Of a DNA stretch of 64,000 nt, positions 5,114-63,164 are shown piece by piece (position 1 is the stretch's first letter; every line of letters starts with the position of its first letter). A program made the translations under genes and the position numbers. Source of the DNA: Candidatus Kaiserbacteria bacterium (lineage in GTDB: Bacteria > Patescibacteriota > Minisyncoccia > Phycocordibacterales > UBA2100); NCBI GenBank assembly GCA_016186765.1, contig JACPLD010000001.1, forward strand, positions 133,647-197,646, given 5' to 3'. The notes beneath the pieces were generated by a model that was not told where the DNA came from, made no database searches, and saw only the letters and a program-made list of their open reading frames with translations.

Positions 5114-6478
5114 TCACTTCACAACAGCAGACGTCTCGCGCTTCAGCAACGTGCCGGAGGGCCGCGTGCACTCAAGCGTGAAGTTCCATACGCCGGGAGT
5201 CGTCGTCGCATGAGTGGAGATAGCGCGAGACCCCGCATTCCCGCGAGCGAGGATGGTACTCGCTCCCCCGCGTGAGAGGCTCACCTGACAGGGACTCAAG
5301 ACGCTCATGCCGACCGAAGACCACGAAACAAAGATCGGATTACCGCGCGTGACTTCTTGCGGCCGTACGACGATGGACGCCTCGGGCGAAGGTGATGGTC
5401 TGGGCGAAGCGGGTGATTCGGACGACCTGCGAGAAAATAAGTTGCGCAGGAGTGAAAAGAGACTCGAGAACAGATTCGAATTAGCGAACGGACCTCCACG
5501 CTGATACGAAGGACTCGCATACGGATAGCCCGTTGGATAGTACGACGAATCGTACCCGTAGAACGCATCCTCTTGAGCTGCCGAATCTGGAGGCGCAGCT
5601 TGTGTTGTTCCCCCTCTCTCAAAGGTATCTGGAACTGCTTGAGTCATCTCTTTTACAGAAGCAACCGTCGCCGGAGGAATCTTCTCAGGATCGATGTCAG
5701 ACAGTTTTTTAACGTCCTCCCGATTCAACTCCGGTACATTACTCGCAATTGCTTCCGCGCTCTGTGCGTCGCCTGACCTCCCTTTGGCAATAACATTTAG
5801 GACATCTTCCGTTTTTCGTGGGTCCTTGGCAATCTCAGCAGCTTTCTGTGGATCCATACCTACCTCCTCCGTTAAGAACTTTTCGGTTGCGGCTGCTCCA
5901 GCCGGTGGTGTAAGTGCCTTCGTAACTCCTTCTGTCACCGGTTTATCAATTTGCGGGACCGCCACGGGTTCCGCGGACGAAGGCGCCAGTGCCGCATGGG
6001 CACTGACAGGTGGAACATACTTGCTCAAATCCGCTCCGCCGCAAGCATCCTCAAATGCCCTCCTATAATCAGTAACGCACTTAGAAATCCTGAACACTGG
6101 CTTCTTGCAATTCCTATTGTACGTTCTGAGATCGATCGTCACCGTCGGCCGTCGTTGCCTCTTGCCGGGGTCACAACCCACCTCCTCAAGATGACTCGGC
6201 TCCGTACAAATGCACGTGATTCTATCGGTGAGTAAACCATAACCACTGAAAAGACCGGTCCTTTTGATGCTCAGCGTTACGACCTCATCGGTGCACAAAT
6301 TTGTGCTTCCAAAAAATCCACTCAGGGCCTCTGCAAATGTGGGCTTGTCAGTAACTTTATCAGAGGACCTTTTCGTGACAGTTCCCGGTTTGCAGACAGT
6401 CTGGTGCACTTGCAGGGATTCCGCCGTCGCTGCGGGCACAAGAATAGCCAACACGAGGAGAAGGCGTGTAATGAGCAT
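5114..6478 (-). CDS. secreted protein, paralog of 3315..5054 (shared Cys-rich N-terminal and C-terminal Ig-like domain; acidic/Pro-rich middle)
   Basis: 454 aa; signal peptide MLITRLLLVLAILVPAATA; C-terminal VVRPQEVTRGNPIFVSWSSVG...CQVSL...TPGVWNFTLEC aligns with the C-terminus of the upstream gene. Confidence 0.55.
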   Translation of the reverse strand: MLITRLLLVLAILVPAATAESLQVHQTVCKPGTVTKRSSDKVTDKPTFAEALSGFFGSTNLCTDEVVTLSIKRTGLFSGYGLLTDRITCICTEPSHLEEVGCDPGKRQRRPTVTIDLRTYNRNCKKPVFRISKCVTDYRRAFEDACGGADLSKYVPPVSAHAALAPSSAEPVAVPQIDKPVTEGVTKALTPPAGAAATEKFLTEEVGMDPQKAAEIAKDPRKTEDVLNVIAKGRSGDAQSAEAIASNVPELNREDVKKLSDIDPEKIPPATVASVKEMTQAVPDTFERGGTTQAAPPDSAAQEDAFYGYDSSYYPTGYPYASPSYQRGGPFANSNLFSSLFSLLRNLFSRRSSESPASPRPSPSPEASIVVRPQEVTRGNPIFVSWSSVGMSVLSPCQVSLSRGGASTILARGNAGSRAISTHATTTPGVWNFTLECTRPSGTLLKRETSAVVK

Positions 6479-6536
6479 TCCTTCATTCTATATTCCAAAA
6501 TGCGGTGTGCGCGAGGTCGTGTTGAGAACTGCGTCC

Positions 6537-6788
6537 TCAGAGAAGTACAACAGCGCGATTGCTGGAAAATTCCAGCACGCCGCTCTCAATGGGAAAATCC
6601 TTCGGCTCCTCCGTTAATTCACGGACTCGGATGGTTCCCTTCTTGAGCGTTGTCACCAGCGGTTCGTGGTGCGCAAGTACGGTCAGCTCGCCATCAGAGC
6701 CGGGAAAAGTGGCCGACACCGCCGGACCGTCGAAACGCGTTTCCCCGATGCTTGCGATGACAAGATGAAAAGTATTCGCTCCGCTCAT
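6537..6788 (-). CDS. atpC: F0F1 ATP synthase subunit epsilon (short form, N-terminal beta-sandwich only)
   Basis: 83 aa MSGANTFHLVIASIGETRFDGPAVSATFPGSDGELTVLAHHEPLVTTLKKGTIRV; lies immediately downstream of atpD. Confidence 0.8.
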   Translation of the reverse strand: MSGANTFHLVIASIGETRFDGPAVSATFPGSDGELTVLAHHEPLVTTLKKGTIRVRELTEEPKDFPIESGVLEFSSNRAVVLL

Positions 6789-6794
6789 ACTTAG

Positions 6795-8626
<1,832 letters not shown>

Positions 8627-47614: not shown

Positions 47615-48694
47615 TTAATTCGTGGTCGAGAAGCTCTGCGCTGAGGTCGTTGCCGTGTTGCCGGCTGCATCACTCGATTCAAGCGCGTAGGAATACGTCG
47701 TGCTTGCGGTAAGACCGGCGAGCGTGAGTGCGTGAGTCACCACTGCGGTCACGCTGCTCACGTTGAGCGCCGTCGAAAGGTCGAGAGGTGTCGCTGTTCC
47801 ATAGTATGCCTTGCTCGTCGAAAGCTCGTTCGTCGTCCACCCTATCGAAGCGGTCGTGGACGAAATGCCCGACACGGTGACGCCTGATATCGCCGGAGCT
47901 GTGGTATCTGCCGGCGGCGGCGTAGGCGGCGTTGTCGTAGCCGCGCCGGGGCACACGCCGACCGTATCACCATGCGCGAGATGTGCGCCGAGCGAAGGGA
48001 CAGCGACGACGAGCGTCTGCGGCGAAACACCTACTGGCTTGTGACAGAGCGTTACAAAACCCGCTCCCGGCGTCGTCGTGCTCGTTCCGAGACCGAGGCG
48101 CTTGATGATGCCTGGTGGTAATTCACGTCCGACAAAGAGTGCAAGGACCTTTGCCTGCGTCTTCGGGCCGAAGATGCCGATGCTCTCGATACCATACTTC
48201 TCTTGGAATTTCTTGAGTGCCCGCTCAGTGAGATCGCCGAAGAAGCCGGTTATGAGCCTCTGCGGATAGACATCGGGAAATTGTGCGAGAAGCTCTTGGA
48301 GATCACGCACGTCATCTCCCGACATGCCGCGGCGAAGCGAGCGGAGAAACTTGAGATCCGCCCGTACCTCTTTTACATCCGCCCTGAGTTCACCCCGCGC
48401 CGCTTTCAGCGCGTCGCGCTCTGCTTTCGTTGACGTTGCGGTAGTGTCATCGTCGTCGTCGTCATTGTCGACGACAGACTGCCGGAGTTCTTTGATCGCC
48501 TCCTTCTGCTTCTTCTGAAGTTCCTCGATCTGTTCCTTGAGTTTCTTAATTTGCTCGTGAAGAGCCTGAACAGTCGCTGGGACATTGCTGTTGCCCCGAC
48601 CGCTATTATCCGATTCCGCGTATGCAACCGCCGCCGCAAAGATCACCAGCACGCTTGCGACGATCGCCCCTGCTGCCAAAGATACACGCTGCAT
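47615..48694 (-). CDS. secreted protein with coiled-coil, peptidoglycan-binding domain (PG_binding_1-like) and C-terminal fibronectin-III-like domain
   Basis: 359 aa; signal peptide; MSGDDVRDLQELLAQ...GFFGDLTERALKKFQEKYGIES...GIFGPKTQAKV (PGBD-like); C-terminal PAISGVTVSGISSTTASIGWTTNE...YSYALESSDAAGN (FN3-like). Confidence 0.65.
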   Translation of the reverse strand: MQRVSLAAGAIVASVLVIFAAAVAYAESDNSGRGNSNVPATVQALHEQIKKLKEQIEELQKKQKEAIKELRQSVVDNDDDDDDTTATSTKAERDALKAARGELRADVKEVRADLKFLRSLRRGMSGDDVRDLQELLAQFPDVYPQRLITGFFGDLTERALKKFQEKYGIESIGIFGPKTQAKVLALFVGRELPPGIIKRLGLGTSTTTPGAGFVTLCHKPVGVSPQTLVVAVPSLGAHLAHGDTVGVCPGAATTTPPTPPPADTTAPAISGVTVSGISSTTASIGWTTNELSTSKAYYGTATPLDLSTALNVSSVTAVVTHALTLAGLTASTTYSYALESSDAAGNTATTSAQSFSTTN

Positions 48695-49043
48695 ATATAC
48701 GATTCACAATAGTTACTAATAGTAATGTGCTCCCGCCTTTTCGGATGAAGCACCGATGAAGACGGCAGTGCTGTATGTATCTTACCACCTTCGGATGGGC
48801 ACGGGGCCTATTCCAGCAGCTTTTGCGGGAGCTACGGCGTGCTGGTCGCGGTTCCCCCAGAATCCGGAGCGAGTATCGGACTTGAGACGGCATAAAAATA
48901 GATCGCGCCCGTGACGAGGGCGACGATGACGATTCCCCACATCAGGGCGGTGTTGTTTTCCATAGGCTCCATCATGGTGCTGCAACGATGAAAAGCGCGT
49001 GAGAATGAGCTCGCATTTTTTGGATTTCAATGAGGAATTAGGC

Positions 49044-56067: not shown

Positions 56068-56508
56068 TCAATACCAGTAGCAGCTGTATCCCCCATAGCA
56101 GTAGTCGTAGGAATCGTACCAGTAGTCATCGTACCAGTAGTCATCGTACCAGTAGTCATAGTTATATGTCGGGTAGTAGTAGTACGTATCGTAGGGATAG
56201 TACCAGTAGTCGTAATAGTACGCTGGATACGTATACGTCGGATATGAATAGGAGTATGACGGATATGAATACGAGTACGATGGATAGGAGTACGAGTAGG
56301 ACGTCGGGTACGTGTACTGCGGCGCGCTCACATTCACATATGGCGAGGTGTTGATGTAGGTGTATGGAGCGAAGGTATGACTCGAGTAATTCAAACTCGG
56401 CATTTGATACGGATACGAGGAGTAGTACTGGGCGAGCACCGGCGTTGGCGAAGCAATCGCGAGCACTCCAAGCAAGACACCATATGCGAGCGTCTGCTTC
56501 ATATCCAT
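56068..56508 (-). CDS. secreted tyrosine-rich low-complexity protein (paralog-like of 1189..1833)
   Basis: 146 aa; signal peptide MDMKQTLAYGVLLGVLAIASPTPVLA then YSYSYPSYSYSYPSYSYSYP...DYWYDDYWYDDYWYD. Confidence 0.55.
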   Translation of the reverse strand: MDMKQTLAYGVLLGVLAIASPTPVLAQYYSSYPYQMPSLNYSSHTFAPYTYINTSPYVNVSAPQYTYPTSYSYSYPSYSYSYPSYSYSYPTYTYPAYYYDYWYYPYDTYYYYPTYNYDYWYDDYWYDDYWYDSYDYCYGGYSCYWY

Positions 56509-57917: not shown

Positions 57918-58484
57918 ATGGCAACTCGCAGAACAAAGGAGACAGCCGTGCACACATGTACTTTGACATTCATCGCGACACTCGCGTTCGCGCTTTTGCC
58001 CACTCTCGGGCAAGCCGAAGACGCGCCGCAGCCACCTCCGGCGGAACAAGCTCCGCCACCACCGGATCGCAATCCCTTACGACCGCCCCTGCCGGATCGT
58101 AATCCCGCGCGCGAAAAGGCGGTCGCGCCGGCGGACGACACCATGCTCCTGTGCCACACGATAGAGGGCATGGGGGCGTTCTTAGAAGCCTCGCTTGCGA
58201 AAGAAGCGCTGGAGTTCGATGAGCTTATCGCCATCGCCAATGAGAAGACGACGTTCCAGAATTGCGCGCTCGAGCGTGCGATCGTCCTCGTATTTCCCCA
58301 CGACATCGAGCCGTGGACGTCCGAGGGCGGTGCGTCGGTGCGGGAAGTGAGGATCATCGCCAGCTACATGAAATCAAGAAGCGAGTGGCTCGTTCACCTG
58401 CCACCCATCAAGGCTTACGCTCTCGTTTTCTTAGGAGAGAGCGGCCGCGAAGCAATGAAACAAAAGAGTCCACCATCGCGGTGA
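57918..58484 (+). CDS. hypothetical secreted protein (Pro-rich N-terminal region)
   Basis: 188 aa; hydrophobic signal-like segment (TLTFIATLAFALLPTLGQA); PPPAEQAPPPPDRNPLRPPLPDRNPA. Confidence 0.45.
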   Translation: MATRRTKETAVHTCTLTFIATLAFALLPTLGQAEDAPQPPPAEQAPPPPDRNPLRPPLPDRNPAREKAVAPADDTMLLCHTIEGMGAFLEASLAKEALEFDELIAIANEKTTFQNCALERAIVLVFPHDIEPWTSEGGASVREVRIIASYMKSRSEWLVHLPPIKAYALVFLGESGREAMKQKSPPSR

Positions 58485-58510
58485 TGGTCGGACTCTTTTT
58501 TTATTTTATT
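58466..58510 (+). terminator. Rho-independent terminator
   Basis: gagtccaccatc-gcgg-tgatggtcggactc (12-bp stem with one bulge) followed by tttttttatttt; overlaps the stop codon of the preceding gene. Confidence 0.65.
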
Positions 58511-58594
58511 GTGCGCACTCAACTGTCCATAGCACAAACCTTCACACTGGCTTCAGGAATCGCGTGGTGTACTATACACGACGCGCACACAAGT

Positions 58595-58786
58595 ATGGCG
58601 CAGGTACGAACATTGCGAGAGATCACGCACGAGGCACGGACCGCGCTCTCCGTGATACGCTTGACGGTCGAAACACTCTTGACGAGAGAACCTGCGGAGG
58701 AGGCACGTGCGGAGCTTGAGACGATCTTGAAGCAAGTAGATCGGCTCGCGGAGATCGCGGACGAGATTTCCCGCGCGAAGCGCTGA
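58595..58786 (+). CDS. stand-alone HisKA/DHp-like mini-protein (63 aa) immediately upstream of the hybrid kinase
   Basis: MAQVRTLREITHEARTALSVIRLTVETLLTREPAEEARAELETILKQVDRLAEIADEISRAKR has an H-box-like ITHEARTAL, comparable with LAHELRNPL of the downstream kinase. The stop codon lies 3 nt before the kinase ATG. Confidence 0.35.
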   Translation: MAQVRTLREITHEARTALSVIRLTVETLLTREPAEEARAELETILKQVDRLAEIADEISRAKR

Positions 58787-58789
58787 CGT

Positions 58790-60889
58790 ATGCCCCACAT
58801 CTCTGGTACACCCTACGTCGTCGTGCTACTCATCGTTTTTGGCACCTACCTCGGCACCGCGCTCCTAGGTCTTAGTGTCCAACCAGTGAATACGTTCGCG
58901 ACACTCATCTGGCCTCCTGCGGGCATCGCGATCGCGAGCCTCACGCTCGGCGGCTATCGGCTCTGGCCCGCAGTCTTTCTCGCAGCATTTCTCGCGAATT
59001 TCTACACAGGTGCGCCGGCTGCGGTTGCATGGGGCATCGGCGTCGGCAACACCTTCGAGGCACTTGCAGGCTCGTACATCCTCCGGAATCTCCAGCCGCG
59101 CGCGCTCGAATTCTCCTTTGGGAACTTGCGGGAGACGCTCGTCTTCGCCTTTGGCGCAGCGCTCGGCGCGTCCTTGATAAGCGCAACGATCGGGGTCGGG
59201 AGCCTTGCGCTCGGCGGCGTGCTCCCCGCCGCGGAGGTGGAGCGTACCTGGATCGCGTGGTGGGTGGGCAACGTGCTTGGGGTGCTCATCGTCGCACCCT
59301 TCCTCTTGCGCTGGCTCTCCGAGCCGTTCTACCGCATGAGCTTCCTTCGCTCGGCGGAGATCGTCGGGGTCGCTGCAGCCTCGGGGCTCGTCGCGTGGCT
59401 CGTGTTCTGGCACCAAGATGTCGCCGCGCCCTACCCCGTGCTCGTTCCGCTCGTGTGGGCGGCACTACGCACAGGCCCGCGCGGCACCACGCTTGCGATC
59501 CTCGTCGTTGCAGGAGTTGCGATCGCAGGGACGCTTGCCGGCAGCGGTCCGTTCTTCCAGCTCCCGCTCGAAAGAGCGCTTTTGCAGCTCCAGCTCTTTC
59601 TCGGAACGGTGACGACCATCTTCCTCGTCTTCACTGCAATCGTCGAAGATAGACGGCGCGCAGCGGATACCCTTGGAAAACAGGTGGACCATCTTGAGAA
59701 TCTCCTCGAGCGGCTCCGCGCAGAAGATCAGGCGAAAAACGAGTTCATCGCGACGCTCGCCCACGAGTTGCGGAATCCCTTATCCCCCATCGTGAGTACG
59801 ATAGAGCTTTTAAAGCGCGGCGAGAAGGTGGACATTGCGCGGCAGGCCAGCATCATGGAAAAACACGCGAAGAGCCTCTCAAGCCTCTTGAACGACCTCT
59901 TAGATGTCTCGCGCATATCGGCGCAGAAGCTCGAGATCGAGAAGAAGCCCGTGTACCTGGGCGCCTCGATCGCACAGGCGGTCGAATCCGTCGAGCCGCT
60001 CATGCAGGAGAAAAACCATATTCTCAATGTATCAATTAATCCCCGCCCAATCCTGCTCGAGGCCGATCCGGTGCGGCTCGAGCAGATCGTCACGAATCTC
60101 CTCAGCAACGCCGCAAAATACACGCCCGCCGGAGGAACGATCACGCTTTCCGCCACACGCGAAGGATCGCAGGCCGTGATCGTCATGCAAGATACCGGCA
60201 TCGGCATCGAAGCGCCGATGCTCACGCGAATATTTGAACCCTTCCTCCAGATCAAGAGAGCAAATTCCGCCGAAGCCGGCATCGGCGTCGGCCTCGCGGT
60301 CACCAAGAAGCTCATCGAGCTGCACGGCGGCACTATTGAGGCGAAGAGCGAGGGCACGGGCAAAGGGAGCGAATTCACCGTAAGATTGCCGCTGCCGCCG
60401 CACGGCGCGTTCGTGAAGGAAACGCGGAAGGAAGCGGCGCGTCGGCAGCGGCCTCTCTCGCCCTTGCGAATCCTCGTCGTGGACGACAATGTCGACGCGG
60501 CAAACGCACTCGGCAAGCTCCTTGGGATCCGTGGGCACGAGGTGACGCTTGCGCAAGACGGAACGAGCGCTCTCCGCATCGTGCCGCTCCTAAAGCCCGA
60601 TGTCGTCGTCCTCGACATCGGTCTTCCCGATTTCGACGGTTACGAAGTCGCGCGACGCTTGAAGAAAGCGAAGTTTGAGGGCCCACTGATTGCGCTCACC
60701 GGCTACGGGCAGGATCGTGACAAGAAAAAGACAAAGGAGGCAGGCTTCGCCCACCACCTTACCAAACCGGTCTCGCTCGCCGCGATCGAAGAGGCACTCT
60801 CCAAGGTCGTGAGTGGCGGACTGCTCTCACAGGAGGCTCCAAAGGTGGAAGCCGTCGCGAAGGTACCGGCGCAGTTCGTGAGAAGCTAA
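58790..60889 (+). CDS. hybrid sensor histidine kinase (MASE1-like membrane sensor, HisKA, HATPase_c, C-terminal REC)
   Basis: 699 aa; N-terminal multi-TM (LIWPPAGIAIASL...); H-box FIATLAHELRNPL; N/G-boxes (NLLSNAAKYT, DTGIGIE, GIGVGLAV); receiver ILVVDDNVDAA...VVVLDIGLPDFDGYEV...KPV. Confidence 0.9.
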   Translation: MPHISGTPYVVVLLIVFGTYLGTALLGLSVQPVNTFATLIWPPAGIAIASLTLGGYRLWPAVFLAAFLANFYTGAPAAVAWGIGVGNTFEALAGSYILRNLQPRALEFSFGNLRETLVFAFGAALGASLISATIGVGSLALGGVLPAAEVERTWIAWWVGNVLGVLIVAPFLLRWLSEPFYRMSFLRSAEIVGVAAASGLVAWLVFWHQDVAAPYPVLVPLVWAALRTGPRGTTLAILVVAGVAIAGTLAGSGPFFQLPLERALLQLQLFLGTVTTIFLVFTAIVEDRRRAADTLGKQVDHLENLLERLRAEDQAKNEFIATLAHELRNPLSPIVSTIELLKRGEKVDIARQASIMEKHAKSLSSLLNDLLDVSRISAQKLEIEKKPVYLGASIAQAVESVEPLMQEKNHILNVSINPRPILLEADPVRLEQIVTNLLSNAAKYTPAGGTITLSATREGSQAVIVMQDTGIGIEAPMLTRIFEPFLQIKRANSAEAGIGVGLAVTKKLIELHGGTIEAKSEGTGKGSEFTVRLPLPPHGAFVKETRKEAARRQRPLSPLRILVVDDNVDAANALGKLLGIRGHEVTLAQDGTSALRIVPLLKPDVVVLDIGLPDFDGYEVARRLKKAKFEGPLIALTGYGQDRDKKKTKEAGFAHHLTKPVSLAAIEEALSKVVSGGLLSQEAPKVEAVAKVPAQFVRS

Positions 60890-61143
60890 CGTAGGTGCTG
60901 AGAGACGAGTTTCGTCATCTCAAACATCGACACTTGGCTCTTTCCCCCGAAGATGACCTTCAGCTTCGCGTCCGCGTTGATATTTCGCCTGTTCTCTCGG
61001 TCTTGGAGCCCATGCTGCTTGATGTACTCCCACAGCTTCTTTACGACTTGCCCGCGAGGCAGCGGCCCCGAGCCCACGACCGCCTCTAATTCCGACGAAA
61101 GGTTCATCGGCTTCAGTAATGCAGGATTAGCTTTTCTAACCAT
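60886..61143 (-). CDS. SWIB/MDM2-domain protein
   Basis: 85 aa ...GQVVKKLWEYIKQHGLQDRENRRNINADAKLKVIFGGKSQVSMFEMTKLVSQHL matches the SWIB domain pattern. Confidence 0.65.
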   Translation of the reverse strand: MVRKANPALLKPMNLSSELEAVVGSGPLPRGQVVKKLWEYIKQHGLQDRENRRNINADAKLKVIFGGKSQVSMFEMTKLVSQHLR

Positions 61144-62018: not shown

Positions 62019-63164
62019 CTACCTCCATTCGCGCGCGATCTCCCACTTTATCTTCGAGAGCGCTCCGAGCGTCAGAAGCATGAGAATGAGCTGCGCGAGC
62101 CAACCGACGATCGGGACAATACCGAGGATAGCGTAGATCAGAGCGCCGAGCAGTATCGTTTTCCAGCCAACGTCGAACTCACCCCCGAAGAAACTGCGAT
62201 ATGCAAAACTCCCGAGAAGAACCGGCGTCATGATCCAGAGGTAGACGATAACCGTCGCAAACGCGAAGATGCCGAGGAGACCAAGCGGAATCCCCAGAAG
62301 CGACCACAAGAGCATCATCGAAACGACAGGCAGCACGATAGCTACCACAAGCCCGCGTCCGACTTCGAGCAAGGGCTGCGCAGCTGCCGTCTCGACGAGC
62401 CGCACGGCGTAGCGTCTGAACACGAGACCGAGTAGCAGCGCCGCGGCAAGCTGCGCGAGCGTCGTTCCGATGAGCGCAAGTGAAATAATGGCGACGATCC
62501 CGCCGACCGAAACAGCCCGCTCTCGTTTTTTGAATGTCGTCTCGCCGAGAACTGTAGCACCAGCCTCCATCTCTGCTTCCTTCGCCGCTGTGTACGAGAG
62601 ATTTCCTTGAATCCGCGCGCCCTGCCCGAGCGTCAGCTTCTCGGCGAACACCTCGACATCGCCCTCTATTGCGGCATTGAGATAGACGTCGCCGCCACCG
62701 ATTCGCACATCGCCGCCGACAGGAGCGTCGAGCCGCACTGTCCCGCCCGCCGCAAGCACATCTCCTGCTACACTTCCGCCGATATTGAGCTGTCCGCCGA
62801 GGGTCACGACGTCACCACCCACATCACCCCGCAGCAAAATATTCCCTCCTGCGGCCCGCACGTCGTCACCAACATCCCCAAGAATGGTCACGGTGCCTCC
62901 CGCAGCTGCGACATCACCCCCAACGTTGCCGCTCACAACGATCGTGCCGCCCGCGGCAATGAGGTCGGAGCCGAGTGCTCCACTGCTCGAGACGTTCCCG
63001 CCCGCAATGTAGACATCTTCGACAATGCTCTCCTCTACCTTGATGGAGGGTTGCTCTCCCGTTCGAAGCTCGGCGGCCTGCCCGCTGCCGGGAATAAGCG
63101 AAAGAACGAGGAGGCTTGCGAGTAGTGCTGGAAGCGGGATGCCGAGTTTCCAGCTCGTTTTCAT
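62019..63164 (-). CDS. membrane protein with beta-helical GDV/GG repeats (bactofilin/DUF4097-like) and a C-terminal multi-TM region
   Basis: 381 aa; signal peptide; tandem repeats (GGxVxxxGDVGGDV...); C-terminal ~5 TM helices. Confidence 0.55.
   Translation of the reverse strand: MKTSWKLGIPLPALLASLLVLSLIPGSGQAAELRTGEQPSIKVEESIVEDVYIAGGNVSSSGALGSDLIAAGGTIVVSGNVGGDVAAAGGTVTILGDVGDDVRAAGGNILLRGDVGGDVVTLGGQLNIGGSVAGDVLAAGGTVRLDAPVGGDVRIGGGDVYLNAAIEGDVEVFAEKLTLGQGARIQGNLSYTAAKEAEMEAGATVLGETTFKKRERAVSVGGIVAIISLALIGTTLAQLAAALLLGLVFRRYAVRLVETAAAQPLLEVGRGLVVAIVLPVVSMMLLWSLLGIPLGLLGIFAFATVIVYLWIMTPVLLGSFAYRSFFGGEFDVGWKTILLGALIYAILGIVPIVGWLAQLILMLLTLGALSKIKWEIAREWR

Follow-up and report, generated by a model that had tools for sequence, protein, structure and literature searches.

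A gene of 63 codons, found in a 64-kb stretch of contig JACPLD010000001.1 (hereafter the window, meaning the whole of the DNA analyzed), encodes a protein that consists of a single DHp domain (for dimerization and histidine phosphotransfer) of the HisKA family. The source genome is a metagenome-assembled genome (MAG) of Candidatus Kaiserbacteria, from the Parcubacteria within the candidate phyla radiation (CPR). Comparisons across eight lineages indicate that this small gene, which we call the mini gene, is a translated gene under purifying selection and is neither a remnant nor an untranslated leader. We propose, with a probability of roughly 0.4, that its product may be a DHp-only dimeric histidine phosphotransferase acting between the receiver of the neighboring hybrid kinase and an OmpR-type regulator; among the histidine phosphotransfer proteins that have been proposed, it would then be the smallest. 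The two adjoining genes are as follows.

58595..58786, + strand: mini gene, encoding the DHp-only (HisKA) protein of 63 amino acids (aa); ATG start, 63 codons, TGA stop
58790..60889, + strand: hybrid sensor kinase of 699 aa, with the Pfam architecture MASE1-HisKA-HATPase_c-Response_reg and without a histidine-containing phosphotransfer (HPt) domain

A HisKA domain that stands alone

GenBank annotates the mini gene as a hypothetical protein (HYW60_01110), and its translation is MAQVRTLREITHEARTALSVIRLTVETLLTREPAEEARAELETILKQVDRLAEIADEISRAKR. The original prediction, made from the letters alone, had described a two-helix open reading frame (ORF) of 63 aa with an H-box-like motif at this place, and both Pfam and the predicted structure agree with that description. 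The protein matches the HisKA profile (PF00512) with E=1.2e-9 and 38.5 bits, above the gathering cut-off of 26.9, and the match spans both helices, with residues 5-58 lying on profile positions 4-57 of 66. The candidate phospho-acceptor is His12 (codon 58628..58630), and the H-box of the window's protein reads H-E-A-R-T, which fits the pattern H-[ED]-x-x-[TN] by which the motif is defined (PMC3510030).

AlphaFold2, run on an alignment of 11 sequences, models the mini protein as a helical hairpin (mean predicted local distance difference test, pLDDT, 92.6; predicted template modeling score, pTM, 0.74) in which helix 1 (residues 7-30), carrying the histidine, and helix 2 (residues 35-62) are joined by a four-residue turn. 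The top Foldseek matches were DHp domains with template modeling (TM) scores of 0.76-0.85, the best PDB match being the GacS DHp in the RetS-GacS complex (7n0e_A; TM 0.85, root-mean-square deviation 0.9 A over 57 residues), with CpxA and the ERS1 DHp among the further matches; the E-values are weak, as is expected for a fold so small. The nearest solved proteins by sequence profile are SrrB, HK853, EnvZ (including its isolated 67-aa domain A, 1JOY), CpxA, and QseC. The hairpin is expected to dimerize into a four-helix bundle.

Profile, predicted fold, and H-box all place the mini protein in the HisKA domain family, and the earlier view of a stand-alone two-helix DHp domain beside a MASE1 hybrid kinase is borne out by Pfam, AlphaFold2, and Foldseek together. 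It is not a histidine kinase, because the catalytic and ATP-binding (CA) domain is absent: Pfam gave no HATPase_c match in the protein, and the polypeptide stops at residue 63. Neither is it an HPt, since the HPt profile (PF01627) had no match at E up to 10 in the mini protein or in the neighboring kinase. It is also not a protein of the Spo0B/ChpT type, because it lacks their CA-like domain; the Pfam model HPTransfase did not match the mini protein.

We consider the ATG at 58595 to be the true start because the initiator methionine aligns across all members of the family. It had been stated that no longer ORF is seen upstream (58512..58594); the frame is in fact open to 58262, giving an ORF of 174 aa with a TTG start. 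This in-frame extension overlaps the preceding gene and its terminator, and it holds a DNA motif that is conserved in the relatives but in different frames, the extension being unconserved as protein. The 75-aa annotation of one family member (P0003) begins at a non-conserved upstream ATG that lies within a promoter motif.

The core of the mini family numbers eight members of 62-67 aa from one narrow Parcubacteria clade, with homologues of the same length occupying the equivalent position in seven lineages other than that of the window, a signal far above chance. A word-indexed search with the window's protein alone returned only the self-match, and looking for contigs by its exact sequence gave no match; an exhaustive HMMER search of 1.84 billion representatives returned four further proteins of 62-75 aa and, at E<=0.001, no full-length kinase. 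Profile searching added P0008 and P0009, and a look-up of gene context added a 67-aa member in locus L093. P0008 is the L001 protein, which had first come to light when 80 loci carrying related kinases were searched by tblastn with the mini protein, L001 giving the only match. The more distant MASE1-kinase loci L002-L006 had no mini gene by tblastn, and a metagenome scan with four mini sequences returned only an already known contig. We set aside P0002 and P0007 from the HMMER list as spurious (repetitive proteins) and kept the weaker short HisKA proteins P0010-P0015 separate from the family; P0012 is one part of a kinase that is frameshifted in its long-read assembly, and P0010 sits after uvrA with no kinase neighbor. 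The HisKA scores of the other members range from 26.0 to 50.2 bits, so that seven of the eight members reach the 26.9 cut-off and P0005 (26.0) falls just below it.

Conservation is concentrated around the H-box. His12, Arg15, and Leu18 are invariant in all eight members, Ile21, Thr24, Glu26, and Leu41 are near-invariant, and nine residues were invariant among the first six members aligned; the best-conserved part of the protein is the face of helix 1 below His12 (L18, S19, I21, T24, E26). Within the H-box, the residue at H+1 is acidic in 7/8 members, and Thr is found at H+4 in 5/8.

The pattern of nucleotide changes points to selection on the protein. The mini protein is 63% identical to its closest orthologue, that of L001 (77% for the kinases of the same two loci), and the two genes differ at 41 third positions against 17 first and 15 second positions, with a proportion of synonymous differences (pS) of 0.85, which is saturated, and a proportion of nonsynonymous differences (pN) of 0.23. 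For the seven members with DNA (21 pairs), pS was 0.61-0.94, again saturated, and pN 0.23-0.50, with pN below pS in 21/21 pairs. One antisense frame shares the wobble positions of the sense frame, so the frames were also checked directly for stops: the sense frame is open in 7/7 loci, stops interrupt every antisense frame in three or more of them, and the stop codon of the mini gene is conserved in all members.

These results bear on the possibility that the ORF has no function and is what is left of a truncated kinase gene, or that it is a leader which is not translated and is open by chance. Such a view could draw on the narrowness of the family, on the drop of H-box scores in the window's subclade, and on the shortness of an ORF that has no obvious Shine-Dalgarno sequence. 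Against it, the length, start, and stop position are kept in eight lineages despite saturated synonymous divergence, pN stays below pS in every pair, only the sense frame is always open, and the His, the Arg at H+3, and the following Leu are invariant throughout. A leftover is, in our estimate, very improbable; the remnant of a duplicated or decayed kinase, raised in the original prediction, is contradicted by the constant length of 62-67 aa and the invariant His as well as by the pN values, and the leader scenario is ruled out by the comparative data.

Operon order and the neighboring hybrid kinase

The kinase begins, as had been noted, 3 nt after the mini stop, with its ATG at 58790, and the MASE1-HisKA-HATPase-receiver architecture read from its sequence is matched by Pfam in all four domains: the MASE1 membrane domain (aa 13-289, 134.7 bits), HisKA (aa 315-378, 61 bits; His325 at 59762..59764), HATPase_c (aa 426-536, 95.8 bits), and the receiver (Response_reg, aa 561-670, 80.8 bits; Asp609 at 60614..60616). 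Against the L001 kinase, the ratio of nonsynonymous to synonymous substitution rates (dN/dS) is 0.12, and the receiver keeps its catalytic residues (DD, D609, T637 in ALTGYG, and K662) across the 10 orthologues compared. The transmitter-receiver core matches NCBIfam models of hybrids that use a second histidine (H2), namely TorS, RcsC, ArcB, LuxQ, BarA, and EvgS. In addition, the receiver carries an ALTGY segment resembling the 'FATGUY' motif, which has been linked to receivers by which phosphate is shuttled to partners of the DHp or HPt kind (PMC9981736), and this resemblance would weakly favor a phosphotransfer function for the mini protein.

In all members with readable context, the mini gene lies directly 5' of a MASE1-HisKA-HATPase-receiver kinase that has an intact receiver and no HPt. 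The distance from the mini stop to the kinase start varies from a 4-nt overlap to a 6-nt gap (gaps of 1, 3, 4, and 6 nt), and the frame relation of the two genes differs among loci, which rules out a fusion of mini and kinase by read-through or frameshift. In four of the eight members (L081, L091, L093, and the contig of P0006), an OmpR-family regulator gene comes first, followed after 3-6 nt by the mini gene and then by the kinase gene. The window, L001, L084, and L087 have no adjacent regulator gene; upstream of the regulator-less mini loci is a divergent phosphoenolpyruvate (PEP) synthase gene or, in the window, an unrelated gene for a secreted protein.

The five mini-bearing kinases included in the kinase tree form one clade (59-78% identity), and the kinases of the sister loci L002 and L003 (42-47% identity) have no mini gene beside them. 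Close orthologues of the regulator in L094 and L096 directly adjoin the kinase, and the regulators of L081 and L002 are 70% identical. The simplest history suggested by these comparisons is that a mini gene was inserted into an ancestral regulator-kinase pair, between its two genes, and that the regulator gene was subsequently lost or relocated in the window's subclade.

The H-box of the mini proteins falls into two classes along the same division. Regulator-linked members have the canonical H-D-L-R-T-P-L-S and HisKA scores of 46-50 bits, and those of the window's subclade have H-[EDA]-[AG]-R-[TG]-x-L and 26-38.5 bits. The local NCBIfam matches of the mini proteins are mostly to classical kinases partnered with OmpR-family regulators (PhoR, RppB, BaeS, QseC, PhoQ, CpxA, PmrB, EnvZ, and CreC), with SrrB also among the best and a few others such as AtoS and NtrB. 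A parallel between the mini motif and the H-box of the adjacent kinase had been drawn earlier, and it holds for the generic HisKA pattern that is common to both, but the classes differ (HDLRTPL versus HELRNPL). With a hidden Markov model (HMM) of the mini family, own-clade kinases score 14-17 bits, the L094 kinase 31.5, a classical kinase beside the regulator in L004 32.2, and unrelated proteobacterial kinases up to 33.8. With own-clade kinases scoring only 14-17 bits, we found no support for the mini gene being a recent copy of the neighboring kinase's DHp; an origin by truncation of a classical kinase next to a regulator, in an arrangement like that of L004, is possible.

Some further features of the related loci were observed. 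In L004 (3668..7832), a hybrid kinase is followed by an OmpR regulator and then by a classical kinase of 358 aa. In L006 (3836..6829, an Adlerbacteria MAG), the orthologous MASE1 hybrid kinase is apparently split by the insertion of a transposase-like ORF pair (5872..6644), and its receiver tail resumes at 6533..6829. In the mini-bearing clade, DHp helix 2 of the kinases opens with (I/L)MEKHA(K/R)S (residues ~350-365 of the window's kinase, 59837..59884), at a place where the mini-less sister kinases have L-x-T-I-x-x-x-V, a pattern that the mini proteins resemble (LETILKQV). This change in helix 2 could reflect a re-allocated partner specificity or could merely be a marker of the clade.

A possible phosphorelay step and competing functions

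Both a heterodimerizing inhibitor and a phosphotransfer partner had been envisaged for the mini protein, and both are possible; the genomic evidence leans towards phosphotransfer because of the regulator-mini-kinase operon, the invariant His, and the H-box of the type found in OmpR partners. According to the mechanism that we favor, the mini protein, having neither a sensor nor an ATP-binding domain, would be co-translated with the MASE1 hybrid kinase, which would autophosphorylate at His325 and pass the phosphoryl group to its own receiver at Asp609. A homodimeric four-helix bundle of the mini protein would take the group from Asp609 onto His12, the H2 of the phosphorelay, and hand it to the OmpR-family response regulator, which would activate the operon through a TTCA-N7-TTCA box in the upstream region. 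Fold class, conservation, selection, gene order, and the cis box are shown by the data; the dimerization, each of the phosphotransfer steps, the binding of the regulator to the box, and the presence of the regulator elsewhere in the window's genome are what we infer.

Several observations argue for this role: the His is invariant, the surface that helix 1 turns to the receiver is conserved, a three-gene operon unites all three partners of the relay, the H-box class of the mini protein matches the family of the regulator, and the kinase has a relay-type core without an HPt. Dimeric phosphotransferases of the DHp type do exist in ChpT and Spo0B (PMC9981736). Censuses made with the P2CS pipeline class proteins having 'HisKA without HATPase or REC' (REC being the receiver) as phosphotransfer proteins, a definition that covers the mini protein, the class itself being a bookkeeping of domain content (PMC4618731).

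A number of points weigh against a relay. In the window's subclade no regulator gene adjoins the pair: apart from the 699-aa kinase, we found no receiver or kinase ORF in the 64-kb window, and in L098 no regulator gene occurs within 10 kb on either side. The sister lineages L002, L094, and L096 have a regulator and a hybrid kinase with no mini gene and no visible HPt, and because they run the regulator-kinase pair without a mini protein, an H2 step is not obviously required. Relatives that function without it are also what would be expected of a modulator, and in four lineages without an adjacent regulator gene the mini gene has stayed with the kinase and not with the regulator. In the window's subclade the H-box is degenerating, with the Pro lost, Thr replaced by Gly, and Ala at H+1 in one member. 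The mini protein has only ~5 helical residues N-terminal of His12, far fewer than EnvZ domain A, Spo0B, or ChpT. Finally, the family is small, and with eight members co-variation is inseparable from phylogeny; an apparent co-variation of mini helix 1 with helix 1 of the regulator or of the kinase receiver tracked the two subgroups, was confounded in this way, and was not used.

Some of these points would suit a DHp decoy or heterodimer partner instead, which pairs with the kinase DHp or docks on its CA domain or receiver and so tunes autophosphorylation, possibly being trans-phosphorylated itself as part of a split kinase. This is the main rival of the relay, and we consider it rather unlikely. 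Proteins that engage a kinase DHp to control its output are known in RetS on GacS (7n0e) and in Sda or KipI on KinA, and the best structural match of the mini protein, the GacS DHp co-crystallized with RetS (TM 0.85), offers a precedent for regulation by a DHp heterodimer. The tight coupling of mini and kinase genes suggests synthesis at a 1:1 ratio, and the isolated EnvZ domain A, in work of Park et al. from 1998, was reportedly phosphorylated in trans by a separate CA domain, which we counted in favor of a decoy or split kinase. Nevertheless, a pure binding decoy is disfavored because a simple blocker needs neither the invariant His nor the Arg at H+3. The mini protein is also unlike the DHp with which it would have to pair (14-17 bits to own-clade kinases against up to 34 to unrelated ones, with a different H-box class), and DHps that form heterodimers, as RetS and GacS do, are usually related to each other. 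RetS is a full multidomain kinase-like protein, whereas the mini protein is a true homologue of HisKA whose His is invariant. The helical hairpin of Sda bears no relation to HisKA and lacks a phospho-acceptor His; as a candidate Sda-like anti-kinase the mini protein would fit by its small hairpin and its kinase adjacency, but its HisKA homology and invariant His would set it apart.

A further alternative is a stand-alone phosphatase or buffer of the regulator, whereby the mini protein would bind the phosphorylated OmpR-type regulator and dephosphorylate or sequester it, thus resetting the pathway. This we regard as clearly unlikely. In several kinases the conserved His is inessential for HisKA phosphatase activity, which we counted against this explanation for a family in which the His is invariant, and the mini gene is still linked to the kinase where the regulator gene is gone. 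The H-box class, however, is that of OmpR-partner kinases, and precedents in vitro are offered by EnvZ domain A and by CA-less HK853, which is reported to act as a phosphatase (PMC7005713). Kinase activity requires an acidic residue at H+1, and HisKA phosphatase activity requires Thr or Asn at H+4 (PMC3510030). The regulator-linked minis keep the full H-D-L-R-T-P-L, including the required Thr, but Gly replaces it in three of the eight members even though purifying selection persists. Because the H+4 Thr is lost in these three members and the His is kept, phosphotransfer is preferred over phosphatase activity as the shared function.

Comparison with known systems places the proposed phosphotransferase among, and apart from, the carriers described so far. 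Known second-histidine carriers in phosphorelays are monomeric HPt domains and the larger Spo0B/ChpT pseudo-kinases. HPt proteins (the C-terminal HPt of ArcB, TorS, and BarA, LuxU, the HPt of RcsD, and Ypd1) have the same H2 role that is proposed for the mini protein, but the HPt is a monomeric four-helix bundle (PF01627) with no sequence relationship to it. Spo0B of Bacillus and ChpT of Caulobacter are like the mini protein in having a helical-hairpin DHp with one histidine, and the role proposed for the CA-less mini protein is likewise one without autokinase activity. Both, at about 190-250 aa, retain a CA-like alpha/beta domain at the C-terminus; unlike them, the mini protein consists of nothing but the hairpin (63 aa), matches Pfam HisKA, and is encoded in the kinase operon. 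Spo0B and ChpT, known as 'pseudo-HK' phosphotransferases as well, are four-helix-bundle dimers without autokinase activity that stand between a receiver (Spo0F, or that of CckA) and the terminal regulator (PMC9981736; see also PMC3433190).

EnvZ domain A (residues 223-289, PDB 1JOY, 67 aa) resembles the mini family in size, fold, and HDLRTPL-type H-box. This domain is said, from work of Park et al. in 1998 and Zhu et al. in 2000, to dimerize, to transfer phosphate to OmpR, and to dephosphorylate OmpR. Domain A and CA-less HK853 are engineered fragments, whereas the mini protein is the product of a natural gene kept by selection, and 11 residues precede its His compared to about 20 in those fragments. 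Our literature searches found no characterized or described family of natural DHp-only proteins, although many subscription papers lie outside their coverage and this absence is no proof.

That the 63-residue protein represents a new minimal class of histidine phosphotransferase, and that its insertion in this clade rewired a direct pair into a four-step His-Asp-His-Asp relay, is a tentative and rather doubtful proposition. If true, it would mean that a bare four-helix bundle, with neither a CA-like domain nor the HPt fold, suffices for H2 function in vivo, and that the evolutionary birth of a phosphorelay has been captured. Whether as relay or as decoy, a hairpin of 63 residues would define a minimum for receiver recognition and phosphotransfer and would offer a very small scaffold for the engineering of two-component circuits. 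The series found in these tiny CPR genomes (regulator-kinase, regulator-mini-kinase, mini-kinase) could probe the gain of a relay step and the re-allocation of partner specificity, and ORFs of ~60 aa annotated as hypothetical proteins before kinases can be signaling components.

Upstream signals and other genes of the window

The surroundings of the mini and kinase genes contain the following features.

57918..58484, + strand: gene for a protein of 188 aa with a signal-peptide-like start and a proline-rich segment
58462..58506, + strand: intrinsic terminator of the 188-aa gene, a 16-bp stem and T-run; 5' boundary of the mini/kinase unit
58541..58555, + strand: direct repeat TTCAcactggcTTCA (TTCA-N7-TTCA, 11-bp period), ~55 nt 5' of the mini start
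58567..58575, + strand: conserved motif GTGTACTAT; in the subclade without an adjacent regulator gene, likely the operon promoter's -10 region
60886..61143, - strand: SWIB/MDM2-domain gene, convergent with the kinase gene (Pfam SWIB, 103.6 bits); the 3' ends overlap by 4 nt

The terminator RNA (58455-58512) folds with a free energy of -22.5 kcal/mol (z -5.54), and none of 200 shuffles folded as well. The mini and kinase genes are a two-gene unit, because this terminator stands upstream of them and the convergent SWIB gene downstream; the SWIB neighbor is also present in L001, L081, L084, and L093 and bounds the operon on that side. The protein of 188 aa had no significant match in Pfam or NCBIfam, and its gene occupies the place that is taken by the PEP synthase or regulator gene in related loci.

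The TTCA-N7-TTCA repeat, with the consensus cTTCATnnnnnCTTCAgg across these Parcubacteria loci, precedes the first gene of the operon whichever gene that is: the mini gene in the window, L001 (3734), L084 (2437), and L087 (911); the regulator gene in L081 (5252), L093 (692), L096/L097 (L096 3962), and L002 (3813); and the kinase gene in L003 (3854). Its distance to the first gene is 42-93 nt, apart from 191 nt in L002, and the 64-kb window, with both strands counted, holds only three copies (0.023 per kb per strand). Sites for activators of the OmpR/PhoB type usually consist of tandem repeats, spaced by one helical turn, beside a -10 region, and the repeat is likely to be the binding box of the operon's OmpR-family regulator, which would make the operon autoregulatory. 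Since four diverged loci that lack an adjacent regulator gene have kept the box, we infer that the regulator may still be encoded elsewhere in these genomes. A search for the regulator returned many orthologues, none tied to the window's genome.

The motif GTGTACTA occurs once in the window (0.25 expected; at least one copy in 21/100 shuffles) and L001, L084, and L087 each carry a single copy upstream of their mini gene, with invariant alignment columns. In the subclade, GTGTACTA(T) lies 12-14 nt 3' of the TTCA-N7-TTCA box. A generic sigma-70 scan called no promoter at the GTGTACTAT motif, and a sigma-54 reading of the upstream motif was weighed by eye and dropped.

One of the two other copies of the TTCA-N7-TTCA repeat in the window is found at 48746..48760 (- strand), ~52 nt upstream of a gene at 47615..48694 (- strand) whose product is secreted and combines PG_binding_1 with an fn3-like domain. 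This gene may belong to the same regulon, but the spacing to its TACTAT element is unlike that of the mini promoter, and the copy could be there by chance.

Two further genes of the window were observed on the - strand. The gene at 62019..63164 encodes a protein of 381 aa that has a signal peptide, numerous beta-helix-like repeats of the GGDV/AAGG kind, and membrane segments at the C-terminal end, and for which Pfam gave no match at E<=0.01. The gene at 56068..56508 encodes a protein of 146 aa with a signal-peptide-like N-terminus and extremely tyrosine-rich repeats (YSYSYPSYSYSYP..., DYWYDDYWYDDYWY).

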